From an uncultured Chlamydiales bacterium (GTDB taxonomy: Bacteria > Chlamydiota > Chlamydiia > Chlamydiales > JAAKFR01), in assembly GCA_963748195.1 (NCBI GenBank), contig CAVVHU010000012.1:25097-89096 (forward strand): a DNA stretch of 64,000 nt. The letters run 5' to 3'. Below, piece after piece: positions 29,689 through 30,310 of the stretch. Below the pieces are notes generated by a model, which was not told where the DNA came from, ran no database searches, and saw only the letters and a list, made by a program, of their open reading frames with translations. Numbering within the stretch: position 1 is the first letter of the stretch; each line of letters starts with the position of its first letter. Position numbers and translations under genes: made by a program.

Positions 29689-29956
29689 CAACAATTAAGT
29701 TGCTACGCTTAAAGGCCGTTGTAAAATCTGGCTATATGCGGGAAACTCCTCCAAAGCTTTTAGTACTCGTTCATTTGAGCAGTAAAAATCTAAAAGACAT
29801 GGGGACAATCCGCAGGAAAGACCGAGAAATCGGAATCCTCAGAGGCCATACGCCAGAATCTTCTTTGAAGATAAGAGATGGTCCGATCTGCATAGAAATA
29901 TGCAGCAGCAAAAGCTGGCAGTCACCTAATATTATATAAGTGACTGTAACACAATG
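29689..29956 (+). mobile_element. Group I-like intron at 23S position L1923 (268 nt, ORF-less)
   Basis: The 5' exon ends in U and the insert ends in G. An internal guide gccgttgt (29715-29722) pairs with the exon ataacggt (29681-29688), giving a U.G pair at the splice site. GAAA-capped hairpins lie at 29822-29833 and 29888-29905, and a terminal hairpin at 29919-29946. Confidence 0.7.
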
Positions 29957-29984
29957 CCTAAGGTAGCGAAATTCCTTGTCGGGT

Positions 29985-30310
29985 AAGTAACATTGCCCCA
30001 CTAATTGCGTGAGCAGTAGTGAAAAACCAGCTCATAACGGAGAAGCCCTAATGCTTTCAGCAGGTTAGCATGGGTAACACCGTGGGAAGTCCAAGCAATG
30101 TAAAATTGTGGTGACCCCGTAACGACTGATTCGAAAGATGAGGCTTATTATTTTAATGATAGGCAACACGCTGGTTACTCGCCCTTAATGATTACATTAA
30201 GAAGATATTTTCTAAGGAGTTTCATGATTTAAAATACATGTAACAACTCCTACGGAAGATTGGTGAGTAAAAGGTATAGTCTATACCACTGGTAACAGTG
30301 GATTCATATG
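29985..30310 (+). mobile_element. Group I-like intron at 23S position L1951 (326 nt, ORF-less)
   Basis: Only the placement GGGT|aagtaac...catatg|AAGTTCC satisfies the U-before, G-last rule. P1 candidate: ggguaa (29981-29986) pairs with uugccc (29993-29998). Several stems are present, including the GUAA hairpin ccactg-gtaa-cagtgg (30286-30301). Confidence 0.65.

Follow-up and report, generated by a model that had tools for sequence, protein, structure and literature searches.

The 64,000-nucleotide stretch of DNA analysed here (the window, in whose coordinates all positions are given) contains the ribosomal RNA (rRNA) operon of an uncultured Chlamydiales bacterium, and the 23S rRNA gene of this operon is interrupted twice in domain IV, on either side of a micro-exon of 28 nucleotides (nt). 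Both inserts are almost certainly group I introns, and it is very probable that they are self-splicing introns which are in fact removed from the precursor, although splicing, its order and the history of the introns were all inferred. They lie at positions L1923 and L1951 of large subunit (LSU) rRNA, which are classical homing sites.

Direct reading of positions 29500-30500 placed the end of the upstream exon (...TATAACGGT) at 29688, where the sequence of helix 69 (H69) reads ...GGCCGTAACTATAACGGT. Insert 1 (29689-29956, 268 nt) follows and ends in ...CACAATG, the micro-exon CCTAAGGTAGCGAAATTCCTTGTCGGGT (29957-29984) separates it from insert 2 (29985-30310, 326 nt, ending in ...CATATG), and the downstream exon begins at 30311 with AAGTTCCGACC (AAGTTCCGACCTGCACGAATGG). 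Deletion of both inserts restores the conserved 23S sequence, and the boundaries given in a preliminary description of this DNA proved exact to the base. The bacterial LSU model of Rfam covers the same region with two insertions of 273 and 327 nt at slightly shifted positions. By sequence alone, the boundaries are ambiguous by 1 nt for insert 1 and by 4 nt for insert 2, and only with the choice made in the preliminary description does each upstream exon end in U and each intron in G. In the annotated 2906-nt 23S rRNA of E. coli the junctions fall after nucleotides 1925 and 1953; the conventional numbering over 2904 nt would place them after 1923 and 1951, assuming that the two extra nucleotides are located upstream. 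As a cross-check, the L1931 site (I-CpaI/Simkania) is found exactly 8 nt downstream of the intron 1 site in relatives, and the numbering also agrees with the length of 34 nt reported for the L1917-L1951 exon of Coxiella (PMC10136302). The earlier assignment of the inserts to L1923, the I-CeuI-type site, and L1951 is thus borne out by the E. coli comparison and by the 8-nt distance to L1931. Of the 33 other twin-intron genomes listed, 30 carry exactly this micro-exon sequence; two of them (L024 and L056) have one substitution each and L043 lay outside the comparison.

The Rfam group I model RF00028, a comparison proposed in the preliminary description, matched insert 1 with 70.3 bits (E 1e-17) at a gathering score of 50, which is a detection threshold and not a biological criterion, and matched insert 2 below this score. 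Profile hidden Markov models (nhmmer) were built from relatives with the window left out, using 19 L1923 introns and 12 L1951 introns, and were searched against the whole 64 kilobases (kb). The L1923 profile matched 29713-29951 (E 1.5e-27) and the L1951 profile matched 29987-30306 (E 2.5e-32), with no further match to either intron profile anywhere in the 64 kb. Together with covariation, the RF00028 and profile matches uphold the group I identity that had been claimed.

In an alignment of 20 L1923 introns without an open reading frame (ORF), denoted A1 and covering helices P3, P4, P5, P5a, P5b, P6, P7 (pseudoknot), P9, P9.1 and P9.2, standard pairs occupied 97.0% of cells and compensatory double changes were seen in 37 of 59 pairs. 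When the 3' partners were slid by 1-3 columns, 34-44% of cells were paired, and none of 500 shuffles equalled the observed values. The corresponding alignment of 13 ORF-less L1951 introns (A3; helices P2, P3, P4, P5, P6, P7 and P8) was 96.0% paired with compensatory changes in 19 of 39 pairs, and its slid controls reached 36-47%; A3 replaces an earlier alignment (A2) that was distorted by the longer introns of L024 and L034. The pairing of 87% obtained for P8 of intron 2 is an underestimate, because P8 of the window is 1 nt out of register with the family alignment. Before counting, the RNAalifold consensus was edited: P6 and P7 were entered manually, and spurious elements were taken out as errors, namely a GUUR/UAAC pairing and a small J6/7 hairpin in the intron 1 family and a 383-396 hairpin in intron 2. 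The P3/P7 pseudoknot is supported by covariation in both intron families.

The internal guides are conserved as well, with a GGC.GU(U) core invariant across the 20 intron 1 relatives and UGCCC invariant across the 13 intron 2 relatives. Minimum free energy (MFE) folds that included 8 nt of exon on either side recovered P1 and most core helices, with z-scores of -5.0 for intron 1 and -4.8 for intron 2. In these folds P1 pairs 29681-29689 with 29714-29722 and 29981-29986 with 29993-29998, in agreement with the guide coordinates proposed beforehand (29715-22 and 29993-98). The terminal U of each 5' exon is paired with a guide G (U1923.G29715 in AUAACGGU/GCCGUUGU and U1951.G29995 in GGGUAA/UUGCCC), so that the sequence and the folds both confirm the exon-terminal U, the intron-terminal G and the U.G pair at each splice site.

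The layouts of the two introns differ (Table 1). Intron 1 is devoid of P2 and of P7.1/P7.2, with no more than UAC separating P7 from P3'; its P5 is extended and complex, its P6 is short with a GAAA cap, and it has the three helices P9, P9.1 and P9.2. A layout without P2 and with a complex P5 has been published for bacterial L1917 and L1931 introns (PMC1995217), and LSU/1923 and LSU/1931 introns have been classed as IB4 (PMC6125680). In intron 2, P2 is present, P5 is short, and P7 is separated from P3' by a P7.1/P7.2 segment of 37 nt; the L1951 intron of Coxiella has been assigned to IA3 (PMC10136302). GNRA-capped hairpins, as previously noticed, are present in both inserts: GAAA at 29826-29829 and 29895-29898 in intron 1, and GUGA, GAAA and GUAA loops in intron 2. 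The position of P6/P6a in intron 1 is the site of a LAGLIDADG ORF in the ORF-bearing relative L145.

Table 1. Features of the two introns, their exons and the rRNA operon in the window
Feature	Position	Strand	Basis or remark
16S rRNA gene	25954-27503	+	only rRNA operon in the window
23S rRNA gene, host of both inserts	27711-31249	+	Rfam RF02541, 2695.9 bits, full length
Exon 1, last 8 nt AUAACGGU (E. coli 1916-1923), P1 5' strand of intron 1, U1923 at splice site	29681-29688	+	sequence; MFE pairing with 29715-29722
Intron 1, ORF-less group I intron at L1923, 268 nt, IB4-type layout	29689-29956	+	RF00028, profile model, covariation, MFE fold
Intron 1 internal guide GCCGUUGU; G29715 forms U.G with U1923	29715-29722	+	sequence; MFE fold
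Intron 1 P3, 5' strand, partner 29852-29857	29727-29732	+	5 of 6 pairs compensatory
Intron 1 P4-P5-P5a/b-P4' domain; P4 is 29737-42 with 29809-14	29737-29819	+	L1931-intron type by identity
Intron 1 P6/P6a, short GAAA-capped hairpin	29815-29838	+	covariation helix 6
Intron 1 P7, 5' strand GGCCA, partner 29879-29883 UGGUC; pseudoknot with P3, predicted guanosine-binding helix	29844-29848	+	100% paired; 2 pairs compensatory, 1 one-sided
Intron 1 P8 hairpin	29859-29871	+	MFE fold
Intron 1 P9 (GAAA loop), P9.1 and P9.2	29888-29946	+	5 of 7, 6 of 7 and 6 of 6 pairs compensatory; MFE fold
Intron 1 omega-G	29956	+	terminal TG invariant in 20 relatives
Micro-exon, 28 nt (E. coli 1924-1951), with U1939; shared by intron 1 (as 3' exon) and intron 2 (as 5' exon)	29957-29984	+	sequence
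Intron 2, ORF-less group I intron at L1951, 326 nt, IA3-like layout	29985-30310	+	RF00028 below cutoff, profile model, covariation, MFE fold
Intron 2 guide UUGCCC, pairs with GGGU/AA (29981-29986; slash, splice site); G29995 forms U.G with U1951	29993-29998	+	invariant UGCCC; MFE fold
Intron 2 P2, GUGA loop	29999-30021	+	8 of 8 pairs compensatory
Intron 2 P3, 5' strand, partner 30170-30174	30027-30031	+	100% paired
Intron 2 P4-P5 domain; P4 in the window with A.A mismatch 30041/30079	30037-30083	+	covariation helices 3-4
Intron 2 P6/P6a	30084-30118	+	covariation helix 5
Intron 2 P7, 5' strand GACU, partner 30278-30281 AGUC	30124-30127	+	covariation helix 6
Intron 2 P7.1 (weak, GAAA loop) and P7.2 (hairpin of 9 base pairs), between P7 and P3'	30128-30164	+	alignment; MFE fold
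Intron 2 P8, branched extension, no ORF	30176-30269	+	MFE fold; register 1 nt off family alignment
Intron 2 P9, GUAA loop	30286-30301	+	alignment; MFE fold
Intron 2 omega-G	30310	+	terminal G invariant in 13 relatives
5S rRNA gene	31397-31511	+

In the proposed mechanism, each intron would fold separately in the precursor rRNA, and its internal guide would pair with the end of the upstream exon so that a U.G wobble marks the splice site. Exogenous guanosine, docked in P7, would then attack this site, after which the omega-G (29956 or 30310) would take the same pocket and the exons would be ligated. The ligated junctions are predicted to read ...CTATAACGGT joined to CCTAAGGTAG... and ...CTTGTCGGGT joined to AAGTTCCGAC..., with the micro-exon serving as the 3' exon for intron 1 and as the 5' exon for intron 2. 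As the footprints of the two guides (approximately 1924-1930 versus 1946-1951) do not overlap, the two reactions would be independent and either order would be possible.

The proposal of splicing was drawn from conservation only, namely from the intact and covarying cores, and a number of observations weigh against the overall reading. Insert 2 reached 43.9 bits with RF00028, under the gathering score of 50, with an E of 8.3e-10 over the full model length. At the base of its P7 there is C30123.A30283, where 12 of 12 relatives have C-G, the A.A mismatch in its P4 departs from all 12 aligned relatives, and its P8/J8-7 junction is altered at 30269-30270 in comparison with 12 relatives; in addition, its P7.1 contains just 2 Watson-Crick pairs and its P10 is short, with approximately 2 base pairs. 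Given the departures in the core, the weak P7.1 and the short P10, the activity of intron 2 could be reduced or protein-dependent. The AA at 30269-70 had been considered as a J8/7 defect; it reflects, at least in part, the 1-nt shift in the register of P8 and is not necessarily a defect. The subgroup labels (IB4-type for intron 1 and IA3-like for intron 2) were inferred from the layouts and the published classes of the same sites, and not from a subtype model. Finally, only one chlamydial rRNA intron has been studied by experiment, that at L1931 in Simkania, and it is reportedly not removed: the paper by Everett et al. 1999 (cited in PMC11270868) is titled 'An unspliced group I intron in 23S rRNA...'.

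One alternative is that the inserts are group I-derived but unspliced and are kept in the mature 23S rRNA beside H69-H71, as reported for Simkania L1931. The host is chlamydial, the sole chlamydial precedent was reported to be unspliced, and intron 2 combines several lineage-specific departures in or near its catalytic core with a sub-cutoff Rfam score. However, the core helices, the guides, the omega-Gs and the G-C pair of P7 are intact in both introns, which is hard to explain without selection for catalysis, and the lineage-specific substitutions of intron 1 keep its base pairs. In addition, the H69-H71 interface region is universally conserved, and 594 extra nucleotides left in place there would be expected to do harm, which counts against this alternative; such retention is regarded as unlikely. 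It would be just as improbable that the inserts are either not removed, partly removed, or removed with skipping of the 28-nt exon; exon skipping has been seen with the twin introns of Coxiella (PMC10136302). If this were true, ribosomes would bear as many as about 600 additional nucleotides next to H69-H71, or the efficiency of splicing would throttle ribosome production, and the report of an 'unspliced intron' in Simkania would be extended to two further sites.

Two other explanations appear less plausible than retention. Fragmented 23S rRNA and intervening sequences are known in many bacteria, including the helix 45 element of Coxiella (PMC4990558), and the inserts could be such sequences, cut by RNase III without ligation to leave a fragmented 23S rRNA. 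The bacterial 23S intervening sequences described in the literature retrieved are located in variable helices 25 and 45, whereas the inserts of the window interrupt invariant sequence, fit the group I model and have covarying multi-helix cores with a P3/P7 pseudoknot instead of a single long stem; moreover, excision without ligation would free a 28-nt piece bearing U1939, and this scenario is very improbable. An assembly artefact, in which intron-bearing rRNA fragments of other community members were joined into a chlamydial contig, deserves consideration, given that rRNA operons are often mis-assembled in metagenome-assembled genomes (MAGs) and that the nearest relatives of intron 2 in the sample are non-chlamydial and at most 60% identical. 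Nevertheless, the flanking exons and the micro-exon form one continuous 23S sequence whose best matches are the 23S genes of chlamydiae (83-91%), the best matches of parts of intron 1 are introns of three other chlamydial contigs, and both introns have a low, host-like G+C content whereas most of their relatives are G+C-rich. One protein of the window is also 100% identical to a protein from a single public NCBI/ENA contig of 127 kb, and there is very little to recommend an artefact over two genuine group I introns in a chlamydial 23S gene.

The central part of intron 1 points to a composite origin. Its nucleotides 49-131 (29737-29819; P4, P5, P5a/b and P4') are identical to the L1931 intron of L168 at 77 of 88 positions and to that of L145 at 72 of 90, and only 13-14 nt of this segment match the chlamydial L1923 introns. 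Nucleotides 1-48 (guide and P3) and 132-268 (P6 to the end), on the other hand, match L1923 introns, and among the 195 loci fetched in this work the central segment was matched only by the L1931 introns of L145 and L168. In A1, one pair of P4 is G-C and one pair of P5 is U.G in the window alone, because its central segment is of the L1931 type. Judged by these identities, intron 1 is a mosaic, with a P4-P5 domain of the L1931-intron type in an L1923-type frame. The simplest and likely history would be that homologous introns lying in tandem, 8 nt apart, underwent gene conversion and that the L1931 intron was then lost. The mosaic represents a natural exchange of a whole P4-P5 domain between introns of neighbouring sites, and may be of interest to the field of ribozyme modularity.

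As stated in the preliminary description, neither insert has a homing-endonuclease ORF: no ORF longer than 79 amino acids (aa) was found in either of them, and tblastn with the LAGLIDADG ORFs of 84 relatives detected no endonuclease remnant, the matches being at most 30 aa long (E at least 7e-4) and confined to places where the ORFs overlap the ribozyme core. The relatives at both sites fall into a short class of about 250-370 nt and a long class of about 620-820 nt. Four ORFs of the long form, two per site, were tested and all matched LAGLIDADG_1 (Pfam E 1e-9 to 3e-22), and the enzymes of the relatives are single-motif LAGLIDADG proteins. The bacterial L1923 endonucleases are distant from I-CeuI (E 1e-6) and nearer to domains of the I-OnuI/I-SmaMI type. 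A homing intron encodes an endonuclease, and neither insert does. The endonuclease may have been lost from both introns or never have been present, so that they would now be immobile and vertically inherited. Their A+T-rich composition and their identity of 60-67% to the nearest relatives suggest a long residence.

Introns at L1923 are widespread in bacterial MAGs, and the twin combination of L1923 and L1951 around a 28-nt exon is common. A scan of one genome per GTDB species with the pattern G+CCTAAGGTAGCGAAATTCC (omega-G followed by the exon from 1924) yielded at least 120 loci (L001-L120); the counts are lower bounds and give no per-phylum frequency. An L1923 intron was present in at least 119 species, that is, in all listed loci of the scan but one. 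The remaining locus, L054 from a Muribaculaceae MAG, was rejected as intron-free: it carries a U1923G variant, with ACTATAACGGG directly followed by CCTAAGG around position 843. Most of the listed L1923 introns end in GTAACA..TG, as does intron 1 of the window, and among the matches listed their hosts include Acidimicrobiia, Solirubrobacterales, Acidobacteriota, Gemmatimonadota, Chloroflexota, Ignavibacteria, phyla of the candidate phyla radiation (CPR), a Pirellulaceae MAG and a Chlamydiales MAG. At the 90 loci where length could be measured, 22 introns were 246-472 nt long, two had 529 and 561 nt, and 65 had 660-816 nt; most of the long ones contain ORFs of 140-240 aa. At least 33 of the 120 listed loci are also interrupted right after GTCGGGT, at the L1951 site, with the same 28-nt micro-exon. 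The lengths of both introns were measurable in 25 of these 33, comprising 10 long plus short, 8 short plus long and 7 long plus long combinations, so that each of the 25 measured twin genomes listed has at least one intron with a LAGLIDADG ORF and 18 of the 25 have exactly one. A further scan of metagenomes with the guide/P3 motif of intron 1 added 75 loci, for 195 fetched loci in all, and revealed twins without an ORF in either intron, namely L159/L195 (297 + 297 nt) and L156/L193 (about 270 + 276 nt). The preliminary description had supposed that L1923 and L1951 introns around a 28-nt exon would be a distinct arrangement; this did not hold, as the same pair occurs in at least 33 of the 120 listed species genomes and in metagenome contigs, some of them with no ORF in either intron, and the pair is therefore common in sequence data. 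The introns of the window are 60-67% identical at best to their relatives in twin genomes.

Some loci depart from the prevailing intron types. The insert at the L1951 site of L034 (3833-4287), a Peribacteria MAG, has a core that resembles the L1923/L1931 family (CAGCAGGGAAG...CCTCAGAGACTACACGCC...GATATAGTCCGATCC) and not the IA3-like L1951 family, and may represent an intron family that changed its insertion site. Five loci (L005, L086, L091, L110 and L118, from CPR, Flavobacteriales and Thermosynechococcus contigs) have another type of 3' end at L1923 (...GGTCC...GGGATG or ...TTAAG), and this second type implies that more than one intron lineage occupies the site.

The occurrence of these introns in databases differs from their coverage in the literature. 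In the searchable literature, rRNA group I introns are described as rare in bacteria outside CPR, and no description of bacterial L1923 introns was found there. The bacterial sites named in reviews and surveys are L1917, L1931, L1951/1952 and L2593 (PMC1995217, PMC11270868), and LSU/1923 has been reported for archaea (PMC6125680) and, as the I-CeuI site, for chloroplasts (PMC3315327). For chlamydiae, the literature names only the L1931 intron of Simkaniaceae (PMC6019428). Among Chlamydiae the twin pair is new, and the searchable literature under-describes it for bacteria, but it is common in public genomes.

The host of the introns is placed in a chlamydial lineage by rRNA similarity and by a 'Simkania sp.' homologue. 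The 16S rRNA of the window is 87% identical to that of the Chlamydiales MAG L107 and 83% identical to that of the chlamydial metagenome contig L168, the 5' half of its 23S rRNA is 91% identical to that of contig L145, and the nearest named homologue of one protein of the window, with 39% identity, is from a 'Simkania sp.' MAG. The G+C content is 0.41 in intron 1, 0.40 in intron 2, 0.49 in the 23S exons and 0.44 in the window. The operon has the order 16S-23S-5S, and no tRNA gene was detected by ARAGORN between 16S and 23S. The 16S-23S spacer (27504-27710) is only about 207 nt long; a short spacer without tRNA genes is usual for chlamydiae. The sole tRNA gene in the 64 kb is tRNA-His(GTG) at 24677-24751 on the minus strand, upstream of the operon.

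Among the chlamydial relatives, L107 has an ORF-less L1923 intron alone. The closest ones, L145 (1009-2211) and L168 (reverse-complement coordinates 4522-5390), have an L1923 intron, an 8-nt exon CCTAAGGT and an L1931 intron that encodes a LAGLIDADG protein (MKLE.QWIVGFVDGEGCFHVS...). With only 8 nt between the L1923 and L1931 introns, P10 of the first and P1 of the second must share exon nucleotides, and an overlap of the two homing-endonuclease target sites is expected too. The window is the only one of the chlamydial sequences examined that has an L1951 intron. At least three combinations of sites occur in Chlamydiae: L1923 alone, L1923 with L1931 around the 8-nt exon, and L1923 with L1951.

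Primers and probes based on 23S are broken by introns of this kind, as are rRNA annotation and quality checks that rely on length. The introns also place the maturation of ribosomes under the control of ribozyme folding. The understanding of how group I introns work is unchanged by these findings.

Among the nearest counterparts of the pair are the twins of uncultured Actinomycetota, Acidobacteriota, Gemmatimonadota and CPR (e.g. L017, L072, L010 and L119, and the metagenome pair L159/L195), which use the same sites and intron families. The window twin differs from the listed genome twins in that neither intron has an ORF, both are A+T-rich and the host is chlamydial. The site of intron 1 is that of the I-CeuI intron in Chlamydomonas chloroplasts (LSU 1923; PMC3315327) and of archaeal IB4 introns (PMC6125680, Nawrocki et al. 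2018); compared to the IB4 introns at L1923 and L1931, which include the L1931 intron of Simkania negevensis, intron 1 of the window is without an endonuclease ORF and is a mosaic of L1923- and L1931-type parts, its P4-P5 domain sharing 80-88% identity with chlamydial L1931 introns. Group I introns and other insertions in the rRNA genes of CPR/Patescibacteria comprise ORF-bearing and ORF-less forms at conserved 23S positions such as 1917, 1931 and 1952, and are scattered over the host phylogeny (Tsurumaki et al. 2024, PMC11270868). In contrast to that survey, the host in this case does not belong to CPR, and L1923 is not separately listed there (PMC11270868).

The precedents named in the preliminary description, namely a single L1931 intron in Simkania and L1917 plus L1951 in Coxiella, were both found in the literature (PMC1995217, PMC10136302), where the exon between the two Coxiella introns has 34 nt. 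The introns of Coxiella burnetii, Cbu.L1917 (IB2) and Cbu.L1951 (IA3), are likewise domain IV twins of different subgroups that enclose a tiny exon in an obligate intracellular host, and the L1951 site with an IA3-type layout is common to both systems (PMC10136302; PMC1995217). The upstream intron of the window, however, is located at L1923 and not at L1917, is IB4-type and not IB2, and is followed by an exon of 28 instead of 34 nt. The L1951 intron of Coxiella is described as 720 nt long with a LAGLIDADG ORF of 157 aa, whereas that of the window has no ORF. According to the title of the Coxiella paper (Raghavan 2007), one of the elements there is said to be without omega-G, whereas both introns of the window have an omega-G.

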